Virus record (IMG/VR): IMGVR_UViG_3300045988_060455
Location: 1-44,307 of that record
Origin: a virus
Length of the DNA: 44,307 nucleotides
Direction: 5' to 3' (one strand)
Program-made: the position numbers and the translations under genes
Notes under the pieces: model-generated
What the model was told of the DNA's origin: nothing
Database searches by the model: none
What the model saw: only the letters and a program-made list of their open reading frames with translations
Part shown: positions 2,015 to 44,284 of the stretch, piece after piece
Layout: each line of letters starts with the position of its first letter
Numbering within the stretch: the first letter of the stretch is position 1

Positions 2015-4210
2015 ATGATCGAGCAAAGCGTATCTCTCGCATCCAATGGCGTCGTCAAAGTGCCGGGCTATGAGCAGCTGGTGCGCTTTGGCTACACCAA
2101 GAACCGGGGCGTGTACCGCTTGCACGTCGATGCAACCGGCGAGTGGGAAAGGCTGGCTATCCGCTGCTTCTGGCACGTGCCGGACGGCAAAGACCCGGCA
2201 TCCTCGCTGGTGGTTGACGGCTATGTGGACGTGCCCGCCAGTGTCACCGCACAGCCCGGGAGCGGGTGCGTCACCTTTGAGGGCAGCGACGGCACCAAGA
2301 CAGTCACCAGCGCAGACCTGCGGTATCGCGTGAGTGCCAACTCCGGCACGGAGGACGGCACCGAGCCGGAGCCGGGCACCCCTGCATGGCAGCAGCTGGT
2401 GGATGCCGTCCACGCCGATGCCACCGCCGCAGAGCAGGCCAAGACCGACGCACAGACGGCAGCACAGCAGGCTGGGGCATCTGCCAAAAAGGCCGGACAG
2501 GCCCTCTCTGACACCACCACCGCCAAAGAGGACGCGCTGAAAGCCATCGGTGACAAGCAGACCTCTGCCACGCAGGCTGTGGACACGGCCCGGGACAAGG
2601 CCCTCAAGCAGGTGAAAGCCTCTACAGAAGCCGCACAGACCGCCGCCAGCGAAGCCGCCACCAGTGCAGGCAGTGCCAGCCAGAGCGCTCAGGAAGCCGC
2701 TGACAGCCTGCAGGAGCTGAAGGACGGCATTGCCGCTGGTGATTTCAAAGGCGAGAAAGGTGATAAGGGCGACACTGGCCCCATCGGCCCGGTCGGCCCG
2801 CAAGGTGAGCAAGGCCCTCAAGGCCCCACAGGCGCTACGGGTGCCACTGGCCAGCAGGGCGAAAAGGGTGATACCGGCCCGCAAGGCCCTAAAGGAGAGA
2901 CCGGCCCTGCCGTAGCACTGGACACCACCCTCACCCACGAGGGCGAAGCCGCTGACGCAAAAGCCACAGGTGACGCTATCAGCGTAGTAAAGGTGAGGCA
3001 GAACATTCTTATCGGCACTGAGACAGGCAACCCGCTCTGCGTTGACGATGCTTTCTCTGCGCCCCTGTGCGGCCTGACCGTGTACGGTCGGAGCACGCAG
3101 GACGGCGCACCCACGCCGGATGCACCTGTGCCTATCGTGAGCGCAGGTGACAGCGGGAGCGTGGCGGTGAAGGTGACGGGGAAGAATCTGATTCGGCCCT
3201 ATGAGAAGGACACGCAAATTGCTAAAAACGGTGTTACGATGGACTACAACGTGGCATCTCAGTTAGTGCACGTTTACGGTACAGCCACAGGGATAGCAGA
3301 TATTTTTGATGCAAGACAAGAAATACCTCTATCTGTGAAGTCGAACGTAACAATGTCAATAACTGTAAGAGCTGGCAAAATCCCGGACGGTGTTATTATA
3401 CAGTACAGCGATTTTGTGACGCTGGGACTGAGTTGTACTGGCTCAAAGCCGTACTATACTGGCGCTTTTAACAGACCTGATTCCCCCGGTTCTGTGCGCT
3501 TTGCAATAAATACCCCTAAAGGGACAACCGTTGATTTTACGATTGCAGTTCAGCTCGAACTCGGCACAACTGCCACCGCCTACTCCCCCTACCGTGAACA
3601 GCTCCTCACCCTGCCCACTCCCACTGGTCTCCCCGGCATCCCTGTCACCTCTGGCGGCAACTACACTGATAGCACGGGCCAGCAGTGGGTTTGCGACGAG
3701 GTGGACTTGGAGAGAGGAATACGGGTGCAGAGAGTGAACACCTATAAGTTGACAGAAGTAAACTCGTTACAATCCATCAACAGATATGGAATTGCCAACT
3801 TCACTGCTTCACGCACTTTTACCGACGCATTGCCGCGGAACTTGTCGAAAATTTTTTTATGCAATCGTTTTGCAACTCAGGCCTCTCTAATTGCCGATAC
3901 TCAGGCAGAGGGTGTCCTTATAAATGCAGAAGGGACGTGTTTTTGTCGTATCAAGCAAGAGACTGCTAATACAGTTGACGGTATGAACGCATGGCTTTCA
4001 CGCAACGACGTGTTTATTTATTACGCTCCCGTTACCCCCATCGAAACCCCGCTCACCCCTGACGAAATCGCCGCCTACAAAGCCCTCACAGCGTACGGCC
4101 CTGACACGGTGGTGCAGGCGAGTGACGGCGCGGGGGTAAGACTGGAGTATCAGAGGGATGTGAACATCGTCGTCAAAAATCTTGAGGACGCCATTGCGTC
4201 CATGACCTAA
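2015..4210 (+). CDS. Tail fibre / receptor-binding protein 2 with collagen-like repeat
   Basis: 731 aa. It has a BppU-like N-terminus, an Ala/Gln-rich coiled coil, 18 Gly-X-Y triplets, an [13 protein letters not shown] motif also present in fibre 1, and then a C-terminal region of mosaic GC content. Confidence 0.8.
2750..2911 (+). repeat. Collagen-like Gly-X-Y coding repeat (18 triplets)
   Basis: [53 protein letters not shown] at aa 246-299 of the 2015 CDS. Confidence 0.9.
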
Positions 4211-4220
4211 GGAGGTACAT

Positions 4221-4445
4221 ATGGCTATCAAAAGTAAAGCCCGGCACGACCTGACATTGCGCAGCATCAAGCGCGAGATTTCCGCAGGGCGCGACGTGGC
4301 ATACTGGCTGGACAGGACGTATGCCCATCTGGACAGCGGCATGCTGACGGAGGACGACATCGCAGAGGTCGAGGCTTTGGCACAGGCGTACTACGATGCG
4401 CTGGATGCGAAGGACAAGGCGAACGCTGAGGAAATCACACAATAA
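4221..4445 (+). CDS. Small XkdX-like protein following fibre 2
   Basis: GGAGG RBS. 74 aa containing ..LDSGMLTEDDIAEVEAL.. and ending EEITQ. Its 3' end plus RBS (4428-4450) matches 604-626 at 21 of 23 nt. Confidence 0.6.
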   Translation: MAIKSKARHDLTLRSIKREISAGRDVAYWLDRTYAHLDSGMLTEDDIAEVEALAQAYYDALDAKDKANAEEITQ

Positions 4446-4458
4446 GGAGGCATAACAC

Positions 4459-4713
4459 ATGGATTTGAGGAACACTACCGAAATGATGCTCAGCAGCGAT
4501 TACAAGGAGCGTTTTCGCGCGGAGTATTACCAGACAAAAATCCGCTATGAAAAGCTGCACCGCATGACTATCCAGTACGAGGCCGGAACTTTGAGCTTTA
4601 CGCCGTCCTGCTCTTTGGCTCTTTTGAAAGAGCAAAAAGCGGCTATGGGGAATTATCTCCATGCGCTCGAAGTCCGTGCAGAAATCGAAAACGTTGATTT
4701 AAGCATGAGTTGA
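4459..4713 (+). CDS. Hypothetical helical protein
   Basis: AAGGAGG RBS. 84 aa beginning SSDYKERFRAEYYQTKIRYEKLHRM..; it looks like a conserved small prophage protein of unknown function. Confidence 0.65.
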   Translation: MDLRNTTEMMLSSDYKERFRAEYYQTKIRYEKLHRMTIQYEAGTLSFTPSCSLALLKEQKAAMGNYLHALEVRAEIENVDLSMS

Positions 4714-4725
4714 TGGGAGGATATC

Positions 4726-5004
4726 ATGGCAAGCACTACATACCGCCATCTCGGTGACGTCATCGGGATGTACGCCGCACAAGAGCAATTTCGGCACATC
4801 ACGAAAATGGTCTGCGCACGTCTTCGTGGCCTCACGAAAACATCCCATCTCGGCAATGCCAACAAACTGGTGACGTTTTGTCACCGTTTCGCCAGCATTG
4901 GAACTATGGTGCGCAACGCCGGACAGCTGCCGCAGCCTTTCTGGCTCGGTGCTGCCTGTGGCGGCGGCTCGCATAGTCTTTCCGCCAGCGTTGCAAGGGC
5001 TTAA
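4726..5004 (+). CDS. Hypothetical; probably the N-terminal part of a frameshifted sigma-r4-like regulator
   Basis: ATG 4726 lies behind GGGAGGA. Only the first ~60 aa look protein-like. It overlaps the ATG-less ORF at 4898-5182 in another frame. Confidence 0.35.
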   Translation: MASTTYRHLGDVIGMYAAQEQFRHITKMVCARLRGLTKTSHLGNANKLVTFCHRFASIGTMVRNAGQLPQPFWLGAACGGGSHSLSASVARA

Positions 5005-5182
5005 TGCAGAACAGATAAAAGCTGTGATAAAACGTGCGCCGCTTGGGAGGTATGACCGGAAAATCGCCCGGTTGCGGTACGTTGACCAGCTATGCCAAGT
5101 TGATATTGCAGCGCGTGTGCCGTATTGTCGGACATCAATCGGCAATAGGCTGAAAATTATTGATAAAAAGCTGGATATGTGA
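4898..5182 (+). CDS. Sigma-70 region-4-like HTH protein (C-terminal part)
   Basis: ..YDRKIARLRYVDQLCQVDIAARVPYCRTSIGNRLKIIDKKL resembles a region-4/LuxR-type HTH. This frame is open from 4874 but has no ATG; TTG 4898 is the track start. Confidence 0.5.
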   Translation: MELWCATPDSCRSLSGSVLPVAAARIVFPPALQGLNAEQIKAVIKRAPLGRYDRKIARLRYVDQLCQVDIAARVPYCRTSIGNRLKIIDKKLDM

Positions 5183-5232
5183 TATACTAACTTTGTCTAG
5201 GGATTAGTTTTGAGCTTTTGCTCTGGCGATTC

Positions 5233-5272
5233 AAAAAAGCGGCAGGCTTTCGGGTCTGCCGCTTTTCTTTTT
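5233..5272. terminator. Bidirectional rho-independent terminator ending the late operon
   Basis: Stem gcggcag / ctgccgc (5239-5245 / 5256-5262), flanked by an A-run on one side and ttttcttttt on the other. Confidence 0.8.
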
Positions 5273-5405
5273 GCACGATTTGTGGTAAAATAACATCAAC
5301 AAATCCTCCCGGCCTCTCGAAGAAGCGCATTAGGGTGGATATTTGAAAGGCTACGGCCTTTGTAGAGAGCGGCATTGCCTGTGGTCAGTTCCGCTCTTGA
5401 TTTTA

Positions 5406-5478
5406 CAAAAAATCCCCTGCTTTGTCGAAGCCCTGCGTTCCACGCGGGGTACTTTGTAGGCAAAGCGGGGGAGTTTTT
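5406..5478. terminator. Long bidirectional hairpin terminator (serves the minus-strand cassette)
   Basis: tcccctgctttg (5413-5424) pairs with caaagcggggga (5461-5472), with an inner hairpin ccctgcg/cgcgggg. It is flanked by an A-run and a T-run. Confidence 0.75.
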
Positions 5479-5481
5479 GTT

Positions 5482-5805
5482 TTACAGAATATTATAATGC
5501 TCCGCCAGCAAAAAGCGGATGTATACAGGGCACTCTCTTGTCTCACCGCACCAGCCTTGCAGTGTACGATAAGGAACCCCGGCCATCTTGGCAAAGGCCG
5601 TCTGCGTGAGGCCTGTCTCTTCCACCATCTCTTTAAAAGACATGTGGGCGATCTCCCAAATTTTTTCAAGCTTAGTCTTTTGGGCATCCAGATCAACGCA
5701 CCCAGAGGCATCGTCCTCCACGCTGAGGGTGACGTTATTCAAAAAGATTTCTTTAACGGCCTTTGGGTCAGATGCTATGACGAAAAGTTCAGCTGCATTA
5801 TACAT
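5482..5805 (-). CDS. HTH DNA-binding protein (XRE/Cro-like C-terminal domain)
   Basis: AAGGAG RBS. 107 aa with C-terminal GLTQTAFAKMAGVPYRTLQGWCGETRECPVYIRFLL, a helix-turn-helix pattern. Confidence 0.7.
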   Translation of the reverse strand: MYNAAELFVIASDPKAVKEIFLNNVTLSVEDDASGCVDLDAQKTKLEKIWEIAHMSFKEMVEETGLTQTAFAKMAGVPYRTLQGWCGETRECPVYIRFLLAEHYNIL

Positions 5806-5876
5806 TGCAATTCTCCTTTTTTTTGATTAATAAATTCCCTGGGTGGTGTTCGCACATCACTCGGGGATTTTTTATT

Positions 5877-6065
5877 TTATACGTTAATCCAAGCGGTATC
5901 AACCAGCTCACCGTACTGATATTTTGCCACCAGCATCTTTTTGCTGGATTCGTCCCACTTGGTAGCCTTGTATGCATACTGCTTACCAGTAACCCAACCG
6001 TCCATGCCGCAGATCACATCGCGGGCATTCCAAATCTTCTCGATCATGCTCTTAGAAAGTTTCAT
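5877..6065 (-). CDS. Small hypothetical protein (62 aa), first gene of the minus-strand cassette
   Basis: The track ORF is 5877-6104. ATG 6065 behind GAGGT is preferred (MKLSKSMIEKIWNARD..). No family recognised. Confidence 0.55.
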   Translation of the reverse strand: MKLSKSMIEKIWNARDVICGMDGWVTGKQYAYKATKWDESSKKMLVAKYQYGELVDTAWINV

Positions 6066-6111
6066 TTTAGTTACCTCAAGTTGATTGTGTGTGGTGTCTT
6101 TCACTGTCTAT

Positions 6112-6140
6112 AGTATACGCTCATTGAGCGTATTTGTCAA
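6112..6140 (-). promoter_or_regulatory. Near-consensus sigma-70-type promoter with a palindromic operator in the spacer
   Basis: The minus strand reads TTGACA (6140-6135), a 17-nt spacer, then TATACT (6117-6112). The 17-bp palindrome tacgctcattgagcgta (6116-6132) fills the spacer. Confidence 0.7.
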
Positions 6141-6296
6141 GGCTTTTTGCAAAATTTTATGCTCATTGAACACTTTTTTTGCGCCTGCGCAGCCCCGCTG
6201 CCGTGTGGGCGCTTTTCTTTTTTGTCCTTCGTTGTGCGTTCGTTGTCTCTCACGGCGGTTTAAAAAAGTACACTGGGCGCAAAGGGAGGGGGTGCC

Positions 6297-6674
6297 ATGT
6301 GGCACAGGTTTAACCCAAACCCGCGCGGGAGCAGCGTCGGGGACTGCGTAGTGCGGGCGGTAGCTGCGGCCACCGGCCGGAGCTGGGAGCAGGCGTATAT
6401 CAGCCTTGCACTCACTGGCTACGCCCTCGGCGATATGCCCAGCGCCAACCGCACATGGGGCGCATACCTCCAAAAGCAGGGTTACAAGCGCCGTTTGGTG
6501 GAGGCAGACTGCACCACCTGTTACACCGTGGCAGATTTTGCCCGGGAGTACCCGCACGGCGTGTATGTACTAGGCTGCTCCGGCCACGTCCTGACCGTCA
6601 TCAACGGTGAGTGGTGGGACAGTTGGGACAGTGGCGCAGAATGCCCGATTTACTACTGGTATAAGGAGGAGTAA
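6297..6674 (+). CDS. Putative papain-like (C39/BtrH-like) cysteine peptidase or acyltransferase
   Basis: GGGAGGGGG RBS. The candidate Cys/His/Asp arrangement is NPNPRGSSVGDCVVRA..DMPSAN..WGAYL..SGHVLTVINGEWWDSWDSG. Family membership is not verified. Confidence 0.5.
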   Translation: MWHRFNPNPRGSSVGDCVVRAVAAATGRSWEQAYISLALTGYALGDMPSANRTWGAYLQKQGYKRRLVEADCTTCYTVADFAREYPHGVYVLGCSGHVLTVINGEWWDSWDSGAECPIYYWYKEE

Positions 6675-6677
6675 ACG

Positions 6678-7121
6678 ATGCCGATTTATAACGGATACCC
6701 GCAAGTGTTTTACCCGCAACAGCCGCAGGGGCAGCTTGAAACGCTTCGAGCTGCACAATTTCAACCTCAGCCCGTCATGATGCCGACAATGCAGGGACAG
6801 GTTGCACCGACGGACAGCGGCTTTATCTGGGTACAGGGTGAAGCAGCAGCCCGGGGCTATCTGGTAGCCAACGGGAGCCGGGTGCTTTTACTGGATGCCG
6901 ATTCCGATACCTTTTACATCAAAGAAGTTGGGCAGGACGGCAGACCGTTCCCGCTCCGCATCTACGACTACAAGGAACGCACCAGCGGCCCCAAAGCGTC
7001 GATTTCGGCAACACAAGCCGCAGGCGGGGAGTATGTCACCCGCAAGGAGTTTGACGAGTTGGCGGCAAAGCTGGCGGCGTTAGAAAAGCAGGAAGCACCA
7101 GAGCCGGAAAAGGAGGGCTAA
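6678..7121 (+). CDS. P/Q-rich N-terminus plus small beta domain protein
   Basis: Translationally coupled via the GGAGGAGTAAACGATG junction. It has a QPQ-rich N-terminus, then GFIWVQGEAAARGYLVANGSRVLLLDADSDTFYIKEVGQDGRPFPLRIYDY and a helical tail. Confidence 0.7.
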   Translation: MPIYNGYPQVFYPQQPQGQLETLRAAQFQPQPVMMPTMQGQVAPTDSGFIWVQGEAAARGYLVANGSRVLLLDADSDTFYIKEVGQDGRPFPLRIYDYKERTSGPKASISATQAAGGEYVTRKEFDELAAKLAALEKQEAPEPEKEG

Positions 7122-7124
7122 ACG

Positions 7125-7349
7125 ATGGGCAGCAGCTTGTTTAATTCGATGGGCCGACAGACCCAGAACCCCATTGGCGGGCAGTTCCAGCAGTTTATGG
7201 GCCAGATGCAGGGAAAGAACCCGCAGGAGATGATAAACCAGATGCTCACCTCCGGCCAGCTTTCACAGCAGCAGCTCAACGCCATTCAGCAGCGGGCGCA
7301 GCAGATTGCGCCGATGCTCAACGGCATGAAAAACATGTTTGGATTCTGA
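7125..7349 (+). CDS. Small Q-rich protein
   Basis: The junction motif is the same type, GGAGGGCTAAACGATG. 74 aa, Gln-rich, including QFQQFMGQMQGKNPQEMINQMLTSGQLSQQQLNAIQQRAQQ. Confidence 0.65.
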   Translation: MGSSLFNSMGRQTQNPIGGQFQQFMGQMQGKNPQEMINQMLTSGQLSQQQLNAIQQRAQQIAPMLNGMKNMFGF

Positions 7350-7402
7350 AATGCGGCCGCATTTAGAATAAATTTCAAAATCTAACGTAAAGGAGTAAAA
7401 CT

Positions 7403-8242
7403 ATGTCTCTTTCTTCTGATAGCACGGTTCTGACTATGCCGGTACAGCCCGCCAACGGCTACAGCAACGGCCTCAACGGCTGGGGCGGCGACTGGATGGG
7501 CTGGATCGTCCTCTTTCTGATCTTCGGCATGTTCGGCTGGGGCGGCATGGGCGGCTTTGGCTGGGGCGGCGGCATGGGCGGCGCTTCGCCTTATATGACC
7601 AGCGCAGTCACACAGGCAGACCTGCAGCGCGGCTTCGACAACCAGAGCGTCATGAACAAGCTGAACGGGCTGGAAAGCGGCCTGTGTGATGGCTTCTATG
7701 CCATGAACACCGGGATGCTTCAGGGCTTCAACGGCGTGCAGCAGGGCCTGAACGGCGTCACCAATGCCATGCAGCAGGGCTTCAACAGCACCAATGTCGC
7801 GCTGATGCAGGGGCAGAATGCTCTGGCTACACAGCTGGCAGACTGCTGCTGCAAGACCCAGACCGCGATCCAGGGAGTCAACTACAATTTGGCCACTCAG
7901 GAGTGCGACACCCGGAACCAGATGCAGCAGGGCTTCTGCGCAACGCAGAACGCCATGAACAACAACACCCGGGACATCATCGAGAATCAGAACAGCAACA
8001 CCCGCGCGGTGCTCGACTTCCTGACCAACGATAAGATCGCCACTCTGCAGAGCGAGAACAACGAGCTGCGCCGGGCTGCTTCTCAGGATCGCCAGAGCGC
8101 GTTCCTGACCACCGCGATGAACGCGCAGACCAACCAGATCATCGGGACTCTGCAGCAGAAAGCTCCCGTGCCTGCCTATCAGGTGCCCAACCCCAACGCC
8201 ATTTACTATGGCTGTGGAACCGGCTGCGGCAACTGCGCATAA
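7403..8242 (+). CDS. Gly/Trp-rich membrane-anchored protein with Q/N-rich helical repeats and a Cys-rich C-terminus
   Basis: AAGGAG RBS. The N-terminal GWGGDWMGWIVLFLIFGMFGWGGMGGFGWGGGMGG is YjcZ-like in composition. Repeats include QGFNGVQQGLNGVTNAMQQGFN.., there is a CCC, and it ends YYGCGTGCGNCA. Confidence 0.7.
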   Translation: MSLSSDSTVLTMPVQPANGYSNGLNGWGGDWMGWIVLFLIFGMFGWGGMGGFGWGGGMGGASPYMTSAVTQADLQRGFDNQSVMNKLNGLESGLCDGFYAMNTGMLQGFNGVQQGLNGVTNAMQQGFNSTNVALMQGQNALATQLADCCCKTQTAIQGVNYNLATQECDTRNQMQQGFCATQNAMNNNTRDIIENQNSNTRAVLDFLTNDKIATLQSENNELRRAASQDRQSAFLTTAMNAQTNQIIGTLQQKAPVPAYQVPNPNAIYYGCGTGCGNCA

Positions 8243-8309
8243 CCGAATCACGGCAACTTTTTCCAAAATGGAAAATGTTCAGCCCCTGAGCTGATTTTGC
8301 AAACCAGAG

Positions 8310-8336
8310 CGCCGGGGCAAAAGTCCCGGCGTTTTT
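8310..8336 (+). terminator. Internal terminator or attenuator of the cargo operon
   Basis: Stem cgccggg (8310-8316) / cccggcg (8325-8331) followed by ttttt. Only about 20 nt separate it from the next RBS. Confidence 0.6.
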
Positions 8337-8357
8337 ATTATGAAAGGAGCCGATAAA

Positions 8358-8783
8358 ATGGCTGAGTTTAGCAATTCTAACACCGTCAGCGTGGCAGCGG
8401 GTGAAAACCTTCCCCTGACCGAGACCGCGGTGAAAGCGCCTGCGTTCATTGTGCACCGTGAGGGAAGCGGCCTTGTGACCTTGCGCGGTCTGACCAGCGG
8501 GCAGTGCCGGGCCCGTTTCAAGGTAAGCTTTGGCGGCAATATCGCCATTCCCACCGGCGGCACTGTGGGACCCATTTCCGTGGCGCTGGCTGTCGGCGGT
8601 GAGTCGCTGACCAGCGCGACCGCCATTGTCACCCCGGCGGCAGTCGAAAATTATTTCAACGTTTTTGTGGCTGCGTTTATCGAGGTGCCGCGTGGCTGCT
8701 GCGTGACCGTGGCGGTTAAAAACACCAGTACGCAGGCAGTCAGCATTGCAAACAGCAATCTGATTGTTGAGCGGGTAGCATAA
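8358..8783 (+). CDS. BclA C-terminal-domain-like (C1q/TNF-like jelly-roll) protein
   Basis: The track ORF starts at 8340; ATG 8358 behind AAAGGAG is preferred. It has beta-strand-rich periodicity and ends ..SIANSNLIVERVA. As I recall, B. anthracis BclA ends ..SASIIIEKVA. No collagen region and no signal peptide. Confidence 0.55.
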   Translation: MAEFSNSNTVSVAAGENLPLTETAVKAPAFIVHREGSGLVTLRGLTSGQCRARFKVSFGGNIAIPTGGTVGPISVALAVGGESLTSATAIVTPAAVENYFNVFVAAFIEVPRGCCVTVAVKNTSTQAVSIANSNLIVERVA

Positions 8784-8799
8784 GAAAGGAGATAAAGTC

Positions 8800-9201
8800 A
8801 TGCTGGATAAACTGAATCATCTGAAGGATGAGATGTGCGACGAGCTCATGGAGCTGACCGACAAAAAGAACCGTTCCCCGGGTGATGTTGAGATGATTGG
8901 TGAGATCGTGGACATCATTCTGGACATTCACCGCATTGAGGATTACTGCGAGGGCGGCGAGTACAGCCGTACAGGCGAGTGGGAAGCCGATATGCGCGGG
9001 ACCTTCGGCCGTGATGCCGGAAACGGTTACAACCGGGGCAACAGCTATGCCAACCGCGGCCGTCACTATGTTCGTGGGCATTACTCCCGCACGGATGGCC
9101 GTGAGCGCATGATCTCTGACATCGAGGACATGATGCAGGAAGCCACCGGTGCAGAGCGTGACGCCTACAAACGCGCGGCGGACATTCTGCGCAACGCATA
9201 A
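8800..9201 (+). CDS. Hypothetical protein with helical ends and a central R/G/Y-rich region
   Basis: AAAGGAG RBS. 133 aa containing ..GNGYNRGNSYANRGRHYVRGHYSRTDGRE... Confidence 0.65.
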   Translation: MLDKLNHLKDEMCDELMELTDKKNRSPGDVEMIGEIVDIILDIHRIEDYCEGGEYSRTGEWEADMRGTFGRDAGNGYNRGNSYANRGRHYVRGHYSRTDGRERMISDIEDMMQEATGAERDAYKRAADILRNA

Positions 9202-9219
9202 GGGAGGAGGGCGGCAAGT

Positions 9220-9558
9220 ATGGACATCGACGAGATCAACACCCATATCCACAAGCTGAAATGCGGTTCAACGGACTGGCAGAGTGTGGAAAAGCTTGCC
9301 GCCCTCTGCACTGTGCGGGACGAGCTGGAAGAAAAGCAGGCACCGGCAGAAATGCAGACTCAAGCACTGCCTCCCACGTCGTACCCGGTGGCATACTCCA
9401 CAAAAGCAAATCCACAAAGCGAGTTCGTGGAAGCAGCCAGCGCCGCGCCCTTTGGCGGCTTGATGGATGTGCTCGATGAGCACATGAAGGCAATAAAACT
9501 GGTGTACCCGAAAGAGTATGAGTTAGTAATGCGGAAGATCGCCTCTTTGTCTGAGTGA
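9220..9558 (+). CDS. Hypothetical protein
   Basis: GGGAGGAGG RBS. 112 aa with a C-terminal ..LMDVLDEHMKAIKLVYPKEYELVMRKIASL. Confidence 0.65.
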   Translation: MDIDEINTHIHKLKCGSTDWQSVEKLAALCTVRDELEEKQAPAEMQTQALPPTSYPVAYSTKANPQSEFVEAASAAPFGGLMDVLDEHMKAIKLVYPKEYELVMRKIASLSE

Positions 9559-9572
9559 AGATGCCCAAGCAG

Positions 9573-9611
9573 CAGCCTCGGGGAGCCTGATGGTTCCTCG
9601 GGGCTGTTTTT
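9573..9611 (+). terminator. Rho-independent terminator of the cargo operon
   Basis: A 12-bp stem, cagcctcgggga / tcctcggggctg (two G-U pairs), followed by tttt. Confidence 0.75.
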
Positions 9612-9638
9612 GCGTTTATGAAGCTGTTTTTTAGCGGT

Positions 9639-9659
9639 GTGTTACCAAAAACGTTACCA
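9639..9659 (+). repeat. Putative integrase arm-type site pair (2x GTTACCA)
   Basis: gtgttaccaaaaacgttacca; a near-identical unit recurs at 9848-9868. Confidence 0.55.
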
Positions 9660-9670
9660 TGATAAAGAAA

Positions 9671-9705
9671 GGAACGTCAATTCTCAACGAAATGACGTTC
9701 CTTTT
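9671..9705. terminator. Hairpin next to the attP core (would terminate the reconstituted tRNA)
   Basis: Stem ggaacgtca / tgacgttcc (9 bp), T-rich on both sides. Confidence 0.5.
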
Positions 9706-9708
9706 GCA

Positions 9709-9732
9709 TGGTGGAGGCGATGGGAGTCGAAC
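9709..9732 (-). other. attP core: 3'-terminal fragment of a tRNA gene
   Basis: The minus strand reads gTTCGACTcccatcgcctccACCA: half a T-loop, the T-stem 3' strand, the 7-nt acceptor 3' strand, discriminator A and CCA. No 5' half is present. Confidence 0.6.
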
Positions 9733-9847
9733 AATTAAAAATGATGGATTGTCGTCAAAAATGCATCTTGGATGCACGAAATAGCGCAGGAATAATGCGG
9801 CTTTGTTGGGTTATGCCCAATTCGTTTTTTGACATTTAGAAAAAAGA

Positions 9848-9868
9848 GTGTTACCAAATGTGTTACCA
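9848..9868 (+). repeat. Putative integrase arm-type site pair (2x GTTACCA)
   Basis: gtgttaccaaatgtgttacca, a direct repeat of 9639-9659 that abuts the int stop codon. Confidence 0.55.
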
Positions 9869-9871
9869 GAA

Positions 9872-11008
9872 TCACCCTTGAGCTTTCCTGAATGCAGCGG
9901 TCGTTGCAGCCGCCAAATCTTCACGCTGGCCGTCCAGCTCGTGGCGGTAAACCCCTGCGGTATCCATATTCTTGCTGTGGCCTACCAGCATTTTTAGCTG
10001 GCTGTCAGTCAAGACGCTGGATTCAACGCTGACAAATGTGTGCCGCAGCTCGTAAAGTGAGACTTTCGGCTCAAGCCCGTTTGCTTCCTGATACGATTCC
10101 CAGCGGCGATAGAGCGCGTGCTCTGAGGGAATCTGAAACAGCGGGGTATTGTAGTTTAGCAGTATGCCTTGAGCCTTTAAGAGCTGTACCTGCGCCTCAT
10201 AGGCATCCCGTGCTTCCTTGCCCATGTCAAAAGAGCGGATGGCGTTTTCATTCTTTCCGGTGGTCTGCTCCCGGTGCACGTTGATGCTGCGCCGAAGGTT
10301 GACCGTGTTCCCCTTGATGTCACCATACCAGAGACCAATCAGCTCCCCGGGGCGTAGGCCGGTCGCAACTGCAAAGCGGTAGGCGTAGATATACTCGTCA
10401 AATACCGGCTTTCCATAGTAGGTTCGGGTGTCTACGCTGAACAGGGTCTTCAAGGCGGTGGGCTGCAAGATCGTGCGTTTCCCCATTCTGGCATTCTTCG
10501 GGATAGACAGGTCGGGATGCAGCGTCGTGTACTTGTTCCTTCGGCACCACTTGACAAAGGCGGTTTCCGCAGCCCGGATCGTCATAAGCGTCTTTCGGCT
10601 CAACGGCTGGTTTGAGATGGGCTTGCGCTGGTTCTTTTTCTGTGAGCGCTTCCGGAACGAAACGTCAATGGCCTTTTGAAGATCGCCCTCGGTTAACTCG
10701 TCAATGCGGATATTCCCACAGGTCGGCAGAATATAGCAGTCCCCGTAACGCTGGCATTGTGTCACATAGGACGTCCCGCAAGTCAGCTTCAGCTCTTCCA
10801 CCCACTCTGAATAAAGAACGCTGACCTTCTTTTTTCCGTCTCTGATGCTGTCATCAAGCCATGCATCCGCTTTTGCGTTTGCTTCCCGTTGTCCTGTTCG
10901 GCCCGGCGTGCTGCTGTAAAACCGCTTGCGGGTGCCGTTCTTCTGAACCGCGATGCACCATCGCTTTTCCTTTTCCACCCAAAATGCCGTGTTGACCCGT
11001 TTTTTCAT
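9872..11008 (-). CDS. int: Tyrosine recombinase / phage integrase
   Basis: The track ORF is 9872-11167; ATG 11008 behind GGAGGTGG is preferred. Catalytic pattern: ..ATGLRPGEL.., ..LYELRHTFVS.., ..LVGHS.., ..GVYRH. Confidence 0.9.
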   Translation of the reverse strand: MKKRVNTAFWVEKEKRWCIAVQKNGTRKRFYSSTPGRTGQREANAKADAWLDDSIRDGKKKVSVLYSEWVEELKLTCGTSYVTQCQRYGDCYILPTCGNIRIDELTEGDLQKAIDVSFRKRSQKKNQRKPISNQPLSRKTLMTIRAAETAFVKWCRRNKYTTLHPDLSIPKNARMGKRTILQPTALKTLFSVDTRTYYGKPVFDEYIYAYRFAVATGLRPGELIGLWYGDIKGNTVNLRRSINVHREQTTGKNENAIRSFDMGKEARDAYEAQVQLLKAQGILLNYNTPLFQIPSEHALYRRWESYQEANGLEPKVSLYELRHTFVSVESSVLTDSQLKMLVGHSKNMDTAGVYRHELDGQREDLAAATTAAFRKAQG

Positions 11009-11175
11009 AAAATCCACCTCCATACACAGGGGTACACTGTGCCGCTTCCCTTTGGACGGCGGCGCTTTTTTCTTTGCTGCGGGGCGGCTTCCGGCTGCTT
11101 CTTCCCGCACCACGGACAAAAAGAAGCACCATCCGGGATCTCCTTCCGGCAGCATGGCCTTACGCATTTCATGGC

Positions 11176-11763
11176 TTACTCCTTTTTCTGCCCGATATAT
11201 CCGAATGCACCATTTTCGGCAGCGGCCCTTCCGGCCTTGTAGTTGATCTTCAGGTCGTCAATGGGAGGGTGCGGAGCGTCCGGGCATGGGTCTAGGCCCA
11301 TGCTCTGGGCAAAGTTGTATTGGTCGATGATGGTTCCGCACACGCTGACCCGGTTATTGAGCGGGCAGTGCAAGTTCGCTGCCACCTCGGAGATCACCGC
11401 GGGCGGGCTGCTGCCGTGACTGCCTTTCAGTATGAAGAGAAGCAGCCTTTTCGTCAGCGGCGGCAGTTTTACCACGATACGGCGCAGCTCCGCGTTTAGC
11501 TTCTCGTCTGCCTTGTCGTCATCCGGCACTTTGTACAGATCCGGGTGGGTCATCTCCATGAACACTGTGATGGGCGACACCCCGCACGCCGTGCACCAGT
11601 CCATGATCTCGTCACTGTCCGGGCTGGTGCATCCTTTTTCCCAGCTCTGCACGGTGCGCTCTCCTTTTTCGATGCGCCTTGCGATCTCCGCTTGGCTCAG
11701 GCCAGCAGACACCCGCGCTTTTGCAAGTGCCTTTCCGATTTGGATCGCCGTAAAATAACTCAT
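11176..11763 (-). CDS. CI-like repressor (XRE HTH N-terminus plus unknown C-terminal domain)
   Basis: The track ORF is 11176-12009; the start is moved to ATG 11763 (MSYFTAIQIGKALAKARVSAGLSQAEIARRIEKGERTVQSWEKG). It is adjacent to int and on the same strand. Confidence 0.75.
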   Translation of the reverse strand: MSYFTAIQIGKALAKARVSAGLSQAEIARRIEKGERTVQSWEKGCTSPDSDEIMDWCTACGVSPITVFMEMTHPDLYKVPDDDKADEKLNAELRRIVVKLPPLTKRLLLFILKGSHGSSPPAVISEVAANLHCPLNNRVSVCGTIIDQYNFAQSMGLDPCPDAPHPPIDDLKINYKAGRAAAENGAFGYIGQKKE

Positions 11764-14349: not shown

Positions 14350-14862
14350 GGCGTTGTCAGTTAAAAACGTTAACAAAACACAAAACCCAAGCGGGTCGCA
14401 CCTCCTAAGTTTTTTTACTATGTGTCTGCAACTACATAGTAACACACTTTGTAAACTTTTTCAACTGGTATTTGACACGGCGATAAGAAAAAATCTGCCT
14501 GCGGTTGTTTCACAGACAGACTTTTCACCGATTTGTCACCAGAACGCACTTGCACCCCGGCGGTAATGCAAACATGCGCGTTTGCACGTCTTTCGCGCCA
14601 TGCGCGGCGCAAAAGTAACGCCCGGGCTGCAAAAACAACTTGCAGGGCTATGGGTACGCCGCTTCCTTTGGCGGGTCGGCACCGCCTTGTAAGCCCTAGC
14701 GCTTCACGCACTTGCTCGTGTCTGGAACTGGCTGGCTCAAAAGTTGGGTCAATGAAATCACCTTCCTTTTGAATCAGTTTAACTAGGAGCCTTGAACAGT
14801 ATAGCAAATCGGTGCGCCGCTGTCAATTATGTTTCAACTTACGTTTTAAAGGAGGTGTGAAA

Positions 14863-25992: not shown

Positions 25993-26065
25993 ACTCCAGT
26001 AGCTCAAGTGGTAGAGCAGCGGTCTCCAAAACCGCATGTTGCAGGTTCGAGTCCTGCCGGGAGTG
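25993..26065 (+). tRNA. tRNA-Trp (anticodon CCA)
   Basis: A 73-nt cloverleaf: acceptor actccag/cgggagt (one A-G mismatch), D arm gctc-AAGTGGTA-gagc, anticodon arm gcggt-CTCCAAA-accgc, T arm gcagg-TTCGAGT-cctgc. Confidence 0.8.
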
Positions 26066-26187
26066 CTTGCGTGCCCTATGAGGGAGCGGCGCAATAGCGG
26101 GGCATCCGGCCGCGAAAGTTCCGGGTGCAGCAGCGCCCACCGTTTGACGCCTGTCCAACGAACTGAATGCACGGGCGCTGCTTATAT

Positions 26188-26323
26188 GCCGTCATAGCTC
26201 AACTGGAAGAGCGCCGCCCATTTAAGGCGGGACAACGTTGGTGACACCACGGGAACATCACTGCACAGCCAACCACTGCGCACATCCATTCCGTGGGTGC
26301 CGGTTCGAATCCGGTTGGCGGCT
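26188..26323 (+). tRNA. tRNA-Lys(UUU)-like with A33 and a 68-nt variable-region insertion
   Basis: Acceptor gccgtca/tggcggc, D arm gctc-AACTGGAA-gagc, anticodon arm ccgcc-CATTTAA-ggcgg, a 68-nt insert (26231-26298) with the ccacgg/ccgtgg helix, then T arm gccgg-TTCGAAT-ccggt. Confidence 0.55.
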
Positions 26324-26336
26324 AGCGTGATTTTAG

Positions 26337-26358
26337 AGTGTCCACAGTGGACACTTTT
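26337..26358 (+). promoter_or_regulatory. Perfect inverted repeat plus T-run
   Basis: agtgtccac-a-gtggacact followed by ttt. It is either a terminator of the RNA array or a protein-binding site. Confidence 0.45.
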
Positions 26359-26375
26359 GGAGAGGAGGCATACAA

Positions 26376-26603
26376 ATGTTTGAGCGCTTGAAAGAACTGA
26401 TTTGCGACATGGCAAAGTTTTTGACGCGTCTCGGCGCTGGCCTTATCCTCTCAGCCTTACCGATCAGCAACAAAGAAAGCCACTTTGTGCGCTATGCACG
26501 GAGTTTCGGTTTCCGTGCAGACCACACAAAACGCGAGCCTCGGGCAGAGATCGGAGGCCGTGGCTGTATCCAAGGAGCACGGCCTGCTATCCGTGCGGAT
26601 TAA
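26376..26603 (+). CDS. Doubtful small ORF inside the RNA-rich region
   Basis: Strong RBS (GGAGAGGAGG) and ATG. Only the first ~30 aa look protein-like, and the DNA is full of hairpins: gcacgga/tccgtgc, ggccgtg/cacggcc, atccg/cggat. Confidence 0.3.
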   Translation: MFERLKELICDMAKFLTRLGAGLILSALPISNKESHFVRYARSFGFRADHTKREPRAEIGGRGCIQGARPAIRAD

Positions 26604-26625
26604 CCGCTGCTGATACAATACAATT

Positions 26626-26677
26626 AAAAACCAGCTTTTTGCATGATGAGCTCCATGCAGCAAAGCTGGTTTTTCTT
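26626..26677 (+). terminator. Long hairpin terminator preceding tRNA-CAT
   Basis: accagcttt/aaagctggt and tgcatg/catgca stack into one stem, followed by ttttt. Confidence 0.7.
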
Positions 26678-26679
26678 AT

Positions 26680-26753
26680 GCCGCTTTAGCTCAGTCGGCC
26701 AGAGCATCCGGCTCATAACCGGACGTGTGCAGGTTCGAGCCCTGCAAGCGGCA
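26680..26753 (+). tRNA. tRNA with CAT anticodon (Met elongator or Ile2-lysidine type)
   Basis: A 74-nt canonical cloverleaf: gccgctt / D arm gctc-AGTCGGCCA-gagc / tccgg-CTCATAA-ccgga / gcagg-TTCGAGC-cctgc / aagcggc-a. The G1-C72 pair argues against an initiator. Confidence 0.85.
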
Positions 26754-34120: not shown

Positions 34121-34196
34121 GCCGCTTTCGCACAACTGGCAGTGCTCCCGGCTCATAACCGGGTAGTTGCAGGTTCGACCCCTGCAAGCGGCACCA
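34121..34196 (+). tRNA. Second tRNA with CAT anticodon (CCA encoded)
   Basis: gccgctt / D arm gcac-AACTGGCA-gtgc / cccgg-CTCATAA-ccggg / gcagg-TTCGACC-cctgc / aagcggc-a-cca. The acceptor stem and T stem match those of 26680-26753; the D arm and anticodon stem differ. Confidence 0.8.
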
Positions 34197-41020: not shown

Positions 41021-41760
41021 TGGCTAAGCTTCTGGGCGCAAAAATTGGGGACTATCACACCCTGAAAGACTGGGGGCTGTATCTCAAGGTGGGCAGTCCC
41101 AAGATCGGCGCTGCCGAGGTGGACGAGTACCTTGTACAGGTCACCGGGTCGGACACCCTGCTCAACCTCACCACATGGGACGATGGCAAGGTGCACTATA
41201 AAAAGCGCACCATCACCATGGAGCTGCTCTGCAATGCCCCGAAAAGCAAGTGGCCCAGCATCGAAAGCACCATCGCCAACGCCATCCACGGCAAGTGGCT
41301 GCAGTGTAAGTTCGACGAGGATCCCACGTGGTACTGGGAAGGGCTGTGGAAGGTATCGCCGTCCCGCGACCGGCTTTCCAGCACCTTTACCATCACCGGC
41401 ACCTGCAACCCCTTCAAGCGCAGCGTCTACGATGGCTCGAACGATTGGCTGTGGGATGACTTCAACTTTGAAACGGATATTGTGCGCAACTACACGGACA
41501 TCCCGCTCAAGGCGGGCGAGGATAAAGAGGTGTCCATCACCGGTGCACCGCGTGCGGCCGGCATCTACTTCCAACGCAGCGAGACCGCCGCCGACATCGC
41601 GGTGTCTCTCAATGGCTTTGAGGTAGGCATTCTGGCCAAGTCCACCGACTGGCAGTATATCGAGGGCCTTACCATGCCGGATGGCGTGGTGGGCACCCTC
41701 GTTTTCTCTGCGTCTGCGGACTGCAACATCAGCATCAAGTATCTGGGGGCAAGCCTATGA
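41020..41760 (+). CDS. Distal tail protein (Dit)
   Basis: 246 aa, directly after the tape measure gene, with an overlapping start (TAATG). Confidence 0.7.
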   Translation: MAKLLGAKIGDYHTLKDWGLYLKVGSPKIGAAEVDEYLVQVTGSDTLLNLTTWDDGKVHYKKRTITMELLCNAPKSKWPSIESTIANAIHGKWLQCKFDEDPTWYWEGLWKVSPSRDRLSSTFTITGTCNPFKRSVYDGSNDWLWDDFNFETDIVRNYTDIPLKAGEDKEVSITGAPRAAGIYFQRSETAADIAVSLNGFEVGILAKSTDWQYIEGLTMPDGVVGTLVFSASADCNISIKYLGASL

Positions 41761-43400: not shown

Positions 43401-43414
43401 GAAAGGAGAGATTT

Positions 43415-44284
43415 ATGGACAAGACCTTTGACGAAGCAATCGCGGGAGTTCGCACAGCAGAGCGCGGTGTGGAAGTCCGCGAGGACATCGCACAAGGCAT
43501 GGAGTACGTCAAGCAGTACGCCGAGGAAGTGACAGACCAGCAGCAGGCCGCCCTGCAGGCCGCTCAGACCGCCACCGGAGCAGCCAGCACCGCGACGGAA
43601 AAGGCTGCAGCGGCTGCAGAAAGCAAAAGCGTGGCCCAGACTGCCGCCGCCAGCGCGGCCAAAAGTGCACAGTCATCGTCCGCAGACGCAAAGAGTGCGG
43701 GAAACTCTGCCGCTTCCGCCGAAGAAAGTGCGAACAGGGCTGCGGCCATTGTAAGCACCGACAAGACGCTGAGCGTTGAGGGCGCCCCGGCTGACGCAAA
43801 GGCTGTTGGTGACGCGATGAAAGGCGTGATAAGCGCAGACGCTGTAAAGACCTTGATTGCGGACGCTCTGGCAGAAGACCACGCGAAAATCAAATTTTGG
43901 GTTTCGGTAGATTCCACCAGCCCCGCCGCACTGTTCGGCGGTACATGGCAGGAGATCGCGCAGAACCGGGTTCTGATGGGTGCGTCCTACGCCCACGCAG
44001 CGGGCACCACAGTGGAAGCCGGACTGCCCAACATCACAGGTAGCTTGAGCGAAACCACAAACAACGGTGACAACTCGCCGTTTCGCGGCGCTAATAATGC
44101 CATTTCATCGATAGGTGCTTTGTCAGTTACAGAAGTTAATTCTTCTTGGGTTAGTTACAATGAAAAGTCAGGTTCGGCGTACAATATTGATTTCGATGCT
44201 TCTCGCTCGAATTATATCTACGGCCGCAGCAGCACCGTGCAGCCCGCCGCCTACTATGTGCACATCTGGCACCGCGTGGCCTGA
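43415..44284 (+). CDS. Tail fibre / receptor-binding protein 1
   Basis: An Ala-rich coiled coil, an EGAPADAKAVGDA motif, and a C-terminal AT-richer domain (..GLPNITGS..FDASRSNYIYGRSSTVQPAAYY..). Confidence 0.75.
   Translation: MDKTFDEAIAGVRTAERGVEVREDIAQGMEYVKQYAEEVTDQQQAALQAAQTATGAASTATEKAAAAAESKSVAQTAAASAAKSAQSSSADAKSAGNSAASAEESANRAAAIVSTDKTLSVEGAPADAKAVGDAMKGVISADAVKTLIADALAEDHAKIKFWVSVDSTSPAALFGGTWQEIAQNRVLMGASYAHAAGTTVEAGLPNITGSLSETTNNGDNSPFRGANNAISSIGALSVTEVNSSWVSYNEKSGSAYNIDFDASRSNYIYGRSSTVQPAAYYVHIWHRVA

Follow-up and report, generated by a model that had tools for sequence, protein, structure and literature searches.

A conserved seven-gene module of gut phages encoding a putative membrane protein and a stand-alone jelly-roll protein, possibly linked to lysis

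We analysed a stretch of viral DNA of 44,307 nt (IMG/VR record IMGVR_UViG_3300045988_060455; the whole stretch is hereafter called the window) and in particular seven genes at 6297-9558, which we name g1 to g7. Our tentative reading is that these genes form a lysis-cassette-linked module encoding a membrane-anchored phage protein complex; we hold this as a real possibility, somewhat short of probable. The conserved gene order, the position at the junction of tail fibre and lysis genes, the presence in lytic and crAss-like phages and the recoding of TAG codons in the latter together suggest a lytic-cycle function at the membrane or envelope. A preliminary description of the same DNA had seen the genes as a moron-type cargo operon next to attP and as a candidate set for remodelling the spore surface. 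The position was correctly placed, as the module adjoins attP, has a promoter-like site and a terminator of its own and is absent in the related phage FP_Lugh. It is no one-off moron, however; it is an old, conserved and horizontally exchanged phage module tied to the lysis cassette, and it is unrelated to sporulation.

The seven genes

The seven open reading frames (ORFs) of the preliminary description are all real and lie on the plus strand at 6297-6674, 6678-7121, 7125-7349, 7403-8242, 8340-8783, 8800-9201 and 9220-9558 in the ORF listing, and a Shine-Dalgarno sequence is present for all seven genes. Each of g1 to g5 matches a PHROG for which the function is not known (E 1e-19 to 1e-60), and g1 and g5 have thousands of metagenome relatives apiece. 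These PHROG matches, along with the recurrent gene order and the large g4 family described below, place g1-g7 far from chance ORFs. The repeated junction motif reported earlier, GGAGGnnTAAACGATG, was found twice, ahead of g2 and ahead of g3; the coupling is not tight throughout the operon, and at g4-g5 a structured spacer of 115 nt intervenes. Residue counts agree with the compositions first given, i.e. a P/Q-rich g2, a Gln-rich g3, a Cys-rich g4 and an R/G/Y-rich g6, and the individual descriptions of g1 (Cys/His papain-like), g4 (Gly/Trp-flanked transmembrane segment and Cys tail) and g5 (jelly-roll) are upheld as well. We do not, on the other hand, regard it as established that virion functions are missing from the operon.

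Judged by eye only, none of the seven proteins has a signal peptide. Scans of g1-g7 with Pfam, NCBIfam and PADLOC gave zero matches above threshold, and searches against PDB sequences gave nothing significant for g1 and g5 singly or for g1, g5, g2 and g4 as profiles, so that none of the Pfam, NCBIfam, PADLOC or PDB sequence models accommodates g1-g7. Against the PADLOC anti-phage defence models the seven proteins gave only sub-threshold coiled-coil noise, between g4 and ZorA (E 0.036). The GC content is 0.556-0.571 over 6001-9000 and 0.522 over 9001-10000, which is inside the range of the remaining window; the base composition is thus like that of the phage and not foreign.

The jelly-roll protein g5

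The gene g5 (8358-8783, plus strand) encodes a stand-alone TNF/C1q-type jelly-roll of 141 aa with a conserved Cys and a Cys-Cys pair, matching phrog_20016 at 7e-58. Its ORF was called from 8340; the true start is at 8358, which is served by an AAAGGAG Shine-Dalgarno sequence and gives the length found in most homologues. More than 8000 homologues were detected, mostly of 139-141 aa. The AlphaFold2 model, built from an alignment of 133 sequences, is all-beta with a predicted local distance difference test score (pLDDT) of 94.4, and the best Foldseek matches were ExsF/ExsFA/BxpB, the C-terminal domain of F-BclA and BclA-C, with a probability of 1.0, E of about 1e-6 and TM-scores of 0.70-0.74 at 10-15% identity (top PDB matches 9h3d, 7r1m, 8d02, 9h38 and 1wck). 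This model and search confirm the BclA-C/C1q-like jelly-roll proposed for g5 in the preliminary description.

Further Foldseek matches were TNF ligands and knobs of phage fibres and spikes, among them the phi812 spike knob and a cyanophage fibre domain. In BFVD the best matches were stand-alone, uncharacterised phage proteins of about 135-145 aa (TM-scores 0.8-0.87), and the TNF-fold matches also included many viral proteins linked to collagen or fibre sequences. Since virion fibre tips have the same fold, the fold of g5 alone does not point to spores. At the sequence level, Pfam and NCBIfam (including BclA_C) gave zero matches to g5 at E<=1, and its profile found none among the PDB sequences. 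In the 133 aligned sequences 22 positions are invariant, the Cys-Cys pair included, and such strong conservation suggests that g5 has a conserved partner rather than a variable receptor.

Two simple ideas on the origin and role of g5 were rejected. For a free copy of the tip of the neighbouring 731-aa collagen-like protein, hhalign gave a probability of 1.9%. A role devoted to anchoring collagen was dismissed because just 6 of 41 loci have a collagen-like ORF within 10 kb.

The signature protein g4

The signature protein of the module is encoded by g4 (7403-8242, plus strand; phrog_16490 at 2e-60). At E<=1e-10 its family amounts to 775 clusters at 50% identity, all of 200-340 aa, with a single architecture and no fusions. 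A conserved N-terminal peptide (MSL..MPVAP or ..DIAAVTGNN) is followed by a Gly-rich segment ending in GG(D/N), one short transmembrane helix of the WWIIILFLF type between Trp and Gly, and a variable number of Q/N-rich 'GF' repeats; then come an invariant CCC, a coiled-coil or helical part (TRDII.NQN..RAILD / LAASQ..QN), the motif P.PAY.V.NP and a Cys/Gly tail. The Gly/Trp-flanked transmembrane segment and the Cys tail, first noticed in the window, hold across this whole family. The window's own g4 has 9 cysteines and ends in CGTGCGNC, while about 10-16 cysteines are given for g4 generally.

From these features g4 is predicted to be a single-pass membrane protein with a long Q/N-rich stalk. 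Its N-terminal tail contains acidic residues and no basic ones, which favours an orientation with the N-terminus outside and the C-terminus inside; the large domain would then be cytoplasmic, as would its signal-less partners. A profile search against PDB sequences gave weak matches (E 0.016-0.05), of which the top 16 were all influenza HA2, the aligned part being the fusion peptide and the beginning of the coiled coil. We regard this likeness as an architectural resemblance and not as homology, and it may be compositional in origin.

Homologues in crAss-like phages

The g4-like gene of phage cr109_1 has DNA matches in at least seven crAss-like phages (Suoliviridae), and its product is a homologue of g4 with an E-value of 6e-31 in a hidden Markov model (HMM) search. 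Low-complexity noise was considered as the source of this match and rejected, as the alignment runs from the Gly-rich segment through the WWWIWIILIFFCW transmembrane segment, Q/N coil and CCC motif to the Cys tail at the C-terminus (NCGC). In the three genomes examined (cr109_1, cr52_1 and cr1_1; about 2500-6500 of loci L005, L095 and L096) the gene belongs to a conserved block consisting of a holin, a LysB/FtsL-like protein, a DUF7841 protein with a disordered region, g4, a protein of about 140 aa and one of about 188 aa. The DUF7841 protein matches that of a variant module in the Faecalibacterium-type phage MT836731 (E 4e-16), so two module components, the g4 homologue and the DUF7841 protein, are common across phage orders. 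We found no paper on DUF7841. Between g5 and the proteins of about 140 aa that occupy its position in crAss-like and variant modules, a sequence relation is undetectable.

In-frame TAG codons were found within the g4-like genes of both cr109_1 and cr52_1, and several genes of the crAss-like block carry such recoded codons. Recoded TAG has been reported to mark the late structural and lysis transcription unit of crAss-like phages (PMC10136315), hence we take the g4 homologues of these phages to be late genes. Their depositors have named them 'spike protein/glycoprotein' or 'viral fiber'.

Distribution and forms of the module

The module was surveyed with a g5 profile in one genome per species, and 80 loci resulted. 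Nearly all are gut or rumen contigs of metagenome-assembled genomes (MAGs) labelled Oscillospiraceae, Clostridia, Lachnospiraceae, Acutalibacteraceae or Bacilli, and some are phage contigs of about 40 kb which were mis-binned to other phyla; most hosts of the module are monoderm Bacillota. The gene order was then taken from iterated HMM searches over all ORFs of 85 loci. The full order 1-2-3-4-5-6-7 occurs in 22 loci and 1-2-3-4-5-6 in 18, while 11 have a reduced form with g2, g4 and g5. Strict colinearity of the module extends over more than 40 independent loci of phages or prophages. In the reduced form g5 is followed by a g6-like protein of about 200 aa (a helix, an R/G/Y/M-rich centre and a helix) and this by an HExxH protein of about 105 aa, which has the motif VLCHEIxHAxMFSY and weak DUF6782/SprT-like matches. 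The core of the module is accordingly g2, g4, g5 and a g6-type protein, and a small putative peptidase goes with it in two unrelated forms, as g1 in the full module and as the HExxH protein in the reduced one.

The module is not restricted to temperate phages, as it is found in Butyrivibrio phage Ceridwen and its g4 in crAss-like phages. In Ceridwen g1-g5 lie after the lysin, with g6 and g7 after a further gene of 264 aa, and no integrase is present in the stretch examined. This phage forms plaques, only its lytic cycle was observed, and its authors judged it probably virulent (PMC7372960). Faecalibacterium phage FP_Lugh has the lysis genes and the terminal terminator in common with the window and no module, the terminator following directly after the holin; as FP_Lugh lyses its host without it, the module is not essential for lysis.

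Between close relatives the module seems to be exchanged as a whole, since the flanks of MT836731 (L094) are 90% identical to the window and the module in between is divergent, with a g4 of 38% identity. In place of g5 this phage has a non-homologous, Cys-rich protein of 123 aa, followed by the DUF7841 protein. Three variant modules of this kind were noted (L094 4664-7732, L004 7884-8303 and L089 8738-9121), with g5 replaced by a non-homologous protein of about 125-140 aa that has a Cys-rich N-terminus (MAC...C..C).

An identical g6, and the module with it, adjoins different integrases, a Mob_Pre/primase element or other phage-like genes, and a public assembly collection has the exact g6 protein in 1150 of its indexed blocks. 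In one contig (L100, of GCA_027494515.1) the identical module at 7654-11573 abuts a Mob_Pre relaxase/primase element, and in another (L098, 6968-9321) it abuts minus strand capsid- and scaffold-like genes, which suggests tandem mobile elements or satellites at one tmRNA (transfer-messenger RNA) site. In three MAG contigs labelled Bacilli/Anaeroplasmatales (L053, L051 and L039) g4 and g5 match as several short fragments, suggesting that these carry decaying copies of the reduced module.

Neighbouring genes

Among the Pfam families of upstream neighbours PG_binding_1, CHAP, GH25, Amidase_2/3, CW_7 and holins dominate, and 22 of the top 25 upstream PHROG families are endolysins or amidases. Downstream we find integrases, helix-turn-helix (HTH) repressors, early recombination genes or host genes, with Phage_integrase as the commonest family. 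Adjacency to holin and endolysin genes is thus seen in the neighbour statistics, and likewise in single loci and in the crAss-like phages. In L085 and L079 the module lies between an ORF of 975 aa, the size of a tail fibre gene, and an endolysin, the CHAP lysin overlapping the g6 stop codon; in L066 two endolysins follow immediately downstream. These layouts and that of Ceridwen show that the position is not fixed and that the module can stand before or after the lysin. In Dulem virus 36 it comes directly after the receptor-binding protein. The best explanation is that the module belongs to the tail-fibre/lysis end of the late region, and that in the window it is a self-contained unit beside attP.

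The putative peptidase g1 and the small proteins

The 125-aa product of g1 (6297-6674, plus strand; phrog_3754 at 3e-30) appears to be a minimal papain-like Cys-His-Asp protein, putatively a peptidase or amidase. C17, H97 and D108 are invariant in 121 sequences, and in the AlphaFold2 model (pLDDT 95.5) the Cys stands at a helix N-terminus with the His and Asp on strands; the conserved triad and the secondary structure of the model thus give the catalytic arrangement of clan CA. Foldseek matches were weak (best E 0.05-0.3, TM-scores 0.34-0.46), and all top ones were papain-like, namely AvrPphB, Josephin-2, the ComA C39 domain, staphopain and Tae/Tse. The papain-like enzyme proposed earlier for g1 is therefore consistent with the predicted topology and the invariant residues.

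The g1 family is also found solitary, in Tsamsa-like Bacillus phages, in Geobacillus phage GBK2 and in Lak megaphages, and as it stands there among the genes of unrelated phages g1 probably has a function of its own. In Bacillus phage Izhevsk (L086, 4968-5363) and in GBK2 (L087, 4980-5369) the solitary copy lies among early or accessory genes, and in Izhevsk genes for a Ser/Thr kinase and an Ocr-like anti-restriction protein are close by. It was tempting to see g1 as a transglutaminase that cross-links Gln-rich partners, given its triad and the Q-rich g2-g4; this is unsupported, as g1 gave no Transglut_core match, occurs solitary also without Q-rich partners and is replaced by the HExxH protein in reduced modules. 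Equally unsupported is a double-glycine leader in g4, cut by a C39-like g1 at the GG(D/N) ahead of the transmembrane segment: the sequence departs from the leader consensus, and GG(D/N) is kept where the module has no g1.

The remaining proteins belong to conserved families of low-complexity or helical character. The g2 product (6678-7121, plus strand; phrog_21718 at 1e-24) has a Y/P/Q-rich N-terminal region, with 10 Q and 8 P in its first 46 residues, a small conserved domain (WVQGE...LWDS...IYLKS) and a C-terminal YVTRxEF helix; it is present in full and reduced forms, and 58 homologues were aligned. The 74-aa g3 product (7125-7349, plus strand; phrog_22984 at 1.5e-19) is 23% Gln, with conserved NPLF..LGG and SG..SQ.Q.NQLQ. 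In g6 (8800-9201, plus strand; 59 homologues) a helix, an R/G/Y-rich disordered centre and a second helix follow each other; LKEKLC.ELDEI...KLTDTIKNIDKI and YSR/RG repeats are conserved, and residues 52-100 hold 11 G, 8 R and 5 Y. The g7 product (9220-9558, plus strand; 31 homologues by jackhmmer) has a conserved C-terminal half (YGDSDFL...W.VMDELM..L.V.NPR.Y..VMRKI) and is missing from about half of the full modules.

An RNA element between g4 and g5

The 115 nt between g4 and g5 (8243-8357, plus strand) form a conserved structured element, which consists of hairpin 1, the sequence ATGTTC, hairpin 2, a spacer, a terminator hairpin and the Shine-Dalgarno sequence of g5. The GC-rich terminator hairpin (GCGGCGGGG...CCCGCCGC) lies at 8310-8331, with a T-run at 8332-8339. 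The element was aligned in 28 Oscillospiraceae-type loci, and modules of the Lachnospiraceae type lack it. The stem of hairpin 1 varies between loci with its pairing kept, and in hairpin 2 TCGGC...GCCGA changes in step to TCAGC...GCTGA and similar pairs and is never broken. RNAalifold gave 14 pairs in hairpins 2 and 3, 11 of them with at least one compensatory double change, and no Rfam family was found at the element.

The GCCCCG of hairpin 2 is complementary to the CGGGGC of the 5' arm of the terminator, and since these can pair an antiterminator alternative is suggested. The element is a candidate new cis-regulatory RNA, and it might act as an attenuator.

The window, attP and the host

The window looks like a complete genome of a temperate siphophage of about 44.3 kb, and contigs of 44.2-44.4 kb encode the same proteins. 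Tail genes are found at 41757-44284, followed at the other end by a GH25 endolysin (602-1306), a holin (1676-2011) and a 731-aa gene with collagen repeats which resembles a tail fibre gene (2015-4210, plus strand) and is translationally coupled to the holin. From the lysis genes to the module it is about 4.3 kb, with two terminators (5235-5266 and 5836-5867) in between. Ahead of the module lie two minus strand genes, one for an HTH_3-like protein (5482-5805; weak Pfam HTH_3 match and PHROG matches) and one for a 75-aa protein (5877-6104; PHROG matches), along with a promoter-like site on the minus strand at 6140-6112. Equivalent minus strand small genes precede the module in L097, L098 and L100, and it is possible that the pair at 5482-6104 are local regulators of the module.

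A consensus scan found a candidate sigma-70-like promoter upstream of g1 (TTGTCA-18-TATGCT, 6134-6163, plus strand, 9 of 12 matches). The leader of g1 (6165-6300) was considered as a structured, riboswitch-like element and rejected, with a fold z-score of -0.54 and no Rfam match. A strong intrinsic terminator with a 17-pair stem and a T-run closes the module (9571-9608, plus strand), and a stretch of 43 nt here has 97.7% identity to the right end of FP_Lugh.

As the preliminary description had stated, attP lies close by, just downstream of the module. When the window was compared with an integrated copy on a 262-kb contig, the identity broke at TGGTGGAGGCGATGGGAGTCGAAC, within the tmRNA gene beside smpB, which identifies the attP core (approximately 9709-9732, by alignment with the integrated copy) as the 3' end of the host tmRNA gene, ssrA. 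A minus strand ORF of 431 aa and of the size of a tyrosine integrase follows at 9872-11167; we label it integrase from its position by attP and the HTH gene, and integrases hold the same position in L097 and L099.

The window is a prophage of Faecalibacterium which integrates at tmRNA. An identical g6 protein is annotated in the isolate genome of Faecalibacterium sp. BIOML-A1 (WP_154259244.1), and the lysis region has 80-91% nucleotide identity to Faecalibacterium phages FP_oengus and FP_Lugh. The labels of some records would make Alistipes or Bacteroides the host; this was rejected because of the GGAGG-type Shine-Dalgarno sequences and the identical g6 in the isolate, the records in question being phage contigs of about 40 kb that were mis-binned into MAGs. 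F. prausnitzii and Faecalibacterium are described as non-spore-forming (PMC5690339), and so is the Ceridwen host, Butyrivibrio fibrisolvens (PMC6249431).

A possible mechanism and its alternatives

We propose that g4 would insert into the cytoplasmic membrane, oligomerise through its stalk and be locked by its Cys motifs, and that it would recruit a g5 trimer, with g2, g3, g6 and g7 serving as low-complexity adaptors that lack export signals. A peptidase would mature one of the components, and the complex would then exert its effect at the membrane or envelope, during lysis and release or close to them in time. Its possible roles include timing, or that of a membrane-disruption or fusion-type accessory to the holin and endolysin, and the terminator element between g4 and g5 might set or gate the ratio of g1-g4 to g5-g7.

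Several observations weigh against such a lysis-linked complex. In the window and its closest relatives terminators and opposite-strand genes part the module from the lysis genes, and it has a promoter-like site of its own; the phage already possesses a holin and a GH25 endolysin, and FP_Lugh lyses without the module. In Dulem virus 35 the module sits between the minor and major capsid genes, and TNF-fold domains are commonest in the tips of virion fibres. The orientation of g4 is read only from its charge distribution, and the similarity to HA2 is not significant and possibly compositional. We accordingly give the proposal some credence without calling it likely.

Set apart by terminators and equipped with a promoter-like site, the module would fit cargo expressed in the lysogen as well, forming a membrane-associated layer that protects the lysogen, e.g. 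by superinfection exclusion at DNA entry or by modification of the envelope; the preliminary description had named, as a fallback, another self-assembling matrix or exclusion layer, and it may be that. The location at the extreme prophage end by attP/attR, the terminator and the divergent HTH/antirepressor-type genes agree with this, as do the varying presence among related phages, the swapping of alleles between phages with 90% identical flanks and the joining of the same module to different lysogeny, integrase or other mobile-element neighbours. Membrane-anchored exclusion proteins can moreover be encoded inside late regions, HK97 gp15 being an example. Several loci, however, embed the module in a late operon with translational coupling to the endolysin, and a set of 5-7 conserved proteins, of which several contain disordered parts, does not resemble the known exclusion genes; together with the lack of PADLOC matches and a GC content as in the rest of the phage this makes protective cargo unlikely, though worth keeping in mind. 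We consider an accessory fibre of the virion, with g4 as trimeric coiled-coil shaft, g5 as TNF-like distal knob and the others as adaptors or chaperones and maturation peptidase, a little less likely still. The phi812 spike knob, the cyanophage fibre domain and the many collagen- or fibre-linked viral proteins among the TNF-fold matches speak for it, and so do the variable number of stalk repeats in g4, the loci with the module right after receptor-binding or giant tail-fibre-size genes, the head genes around it in Dulem virus 35 and the collagen-like fibre gene beyond the holin in the window. The transmembrane segment of g4 is strongly hydrophobic and conserved, however, and g5, with 22 positions invariant among 133 sequences, varies far less between host families than receptor-binding tips do; the module of the window is a separate unit behind terminators, relatives of the FP_Lugh type make virions without it, and no more than 6 of 41 loci have a collagen-like partner close by.

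The spore coat or exosporium remodelling set first put forward drew on traits that are real: in structure g5 comes closest to ExsF/BxpB and BclA-C of the exosporium, its partners are Cys-rich or Tyr/Gly/Gln-rich and lack signal peptides, and many Oscillospiraceae and Lachnospiraceae do sporulate. The host lineage of the window is non-sporulating, however, which refutes a spore function for this host and was part of the refuting conditions set in the preliminary description. The host of Ceridwen does not sporulate either, and g4 homologues are found in crAss-like phages. The seven families do co-occur in colinear order, in 22 loci as g1-g7 and in 18 as g1-g6, and they are not restricted to spore-forming hosts. 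Identity to the exosporium proteins is only 10-15%, there is neither a Pfam BclA_C match nor a TIGR03720 exosporium leader, and a collagen-like partner is usually absent. A sporulation-sigma promoter was looked for upstream of g1, and by eye no CATA-type -10 element is present in 6105-6296. We therefore judge a spore-surface function very improbable, and a literature search for prophage-encoded BclA and exosporium genes gave no title or abstract addressing this module.

Comparison with known systems

The closest structural parallel to g5 is found in the ExsF/BxpB and BclA-C proteins of the Bacillus cereus group, which like g5 are stand-alone, ten-strand jelly-rolls of about 140 aa. ExsF is a separate small protein that anchors its partner via a Pro-rich peptide, the partner being proteolytically trimmed (PMC12357932). 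The module likewise has a putative peptidase, and g4 has conserved Pro-containing peptides. It differs in the low identity and in that g5 belongs to no Pfam or NCBIfam family, no partner with an exosporium leader was found in the NCBIfam scan of g1-g7, collagen-like partners are mostly lacking, and the phages have hosts that do not sporulate.

Spanins (Rz/Rz1, T1 gp11), the T4 holin T with RI/RIII and PBSX XhlA/XepA are also small multi-protein sets beside holin or endolysin, and the general build of g4 (a short N-tail, one transmembrane segment, a large coiled-coil domain and suggestive cysteines) recalls that of an i-spanin or holin T. We found no sequence or profile similarity to these systems, no lipoprotein partner and no lipobox in the seven N-termini; the hosts of the module are mostly monoderm, so that no outer-membrane step is needed, it is dispensable in related phages, and its TNF-fold and disordered partners have no counterpart there. 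Class I viral fusion proteins such as influenza HA2 have in common with g4 a hydrophobic segment rich in Gly, Trp and Phe ahead of a long helical stretch rich in Q and N, and the HA2 matches, though weak, agree with the names that depositors gave to the crAss-like homologues; g4 is without a C-terminal transmembrane segment and its hydrophobic segment is internal unless processed.

With the papain-like enzymes (C39 ComA, AvrPphB, staphopain, Tae/Tse, Josephin) g1 shares the Cys at a helix N-terminus and the His and Asp on strands; most of these enzymes are much larger than g1, which has no significant match and occurs solitary in unrelated phages. Morons and conversion cassettes likewise lie between lysis genes and attP with a consensus promoter and terminator of their own and a variable presence. 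Unlike these, the module has the GC content of the phage, is a unit of 5-7 genes across phage orders and in non-temperate phages, and is elsewhere located inside the late operon. As no known system is a counterpart, and the analogy to spanins and holin T is only positional and architectural, we rate the module as new.

At its boldest this would amount to a new class of late proteins, in which a fusion-like g4 stalk is capped by an ExsF/TNF-type g5 trimer on a low-complexity scaffold and matured by a peptidase; we consider that unlikely at present. Much the same holds for the further step of seeing in it an additional stage of lysis or release that is independent of envelope type and common to siphophages of monoderm Clostridia and crAss-like phages, for which the chances seem similarly slim. 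If true, a corollary would be that the ExsF/BxpB anchors of the spore exosporium and g5 share ancestry and a logic of peptide docking and proteolytic trimming.

In the human gut the dominant bacteria include Faecalibacterium and other Oscillospiraceae, the Lachnospiraceae and those infected by crAss-like phages, and a widespread, lysis-tied gene set without assignable function thus leaves a major gap in our picture of how the most common gut phages complete their cycle or shield their lysogens. Should the module modulate lysis or release, it would bear on phage-host dynamics, on the outcome of prophage induction and on the engineering of gut phages. The ExsF-like fold offers a concrete structural hypothesis, peptide docking on a trimer, and lysogens of the Faecalibacterium sp. 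BIOML-A1 type and Butyrivibrio phage Ceridwen are cultivable handles.

Minor observations

The fibre-type gene at 2015-4210 stands after the endolysin, an unusual site for a fibre gene; it is unrelated to g5 and is missing in related prophages (L090). Next to it, at 4459-4713 on the plus strand, an 84-aa protein of the crAss001_48 family is encoded (Pfam 6e-19), which is another family common to Faecalibacterium prophage and crAss-like phages. Just upstream of the module, between a late-region terminator and the minus strand HTH gene, we found the Rfam motif DUF3800-VIII at 5411-5474 on the plus strand (80 bits; gathering threshold 40). A FuFi-1 RNA is present in the early/lysogeny region at 14489-14711 on the minus strand (68 bits; gathering threshold 59.6). 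Finally, four plus strand tRNA matches were detected within 25993-26753 and 34121-34193, one of which (26188-26323) is 136 nt long, a length that suggests an intron or insertion.

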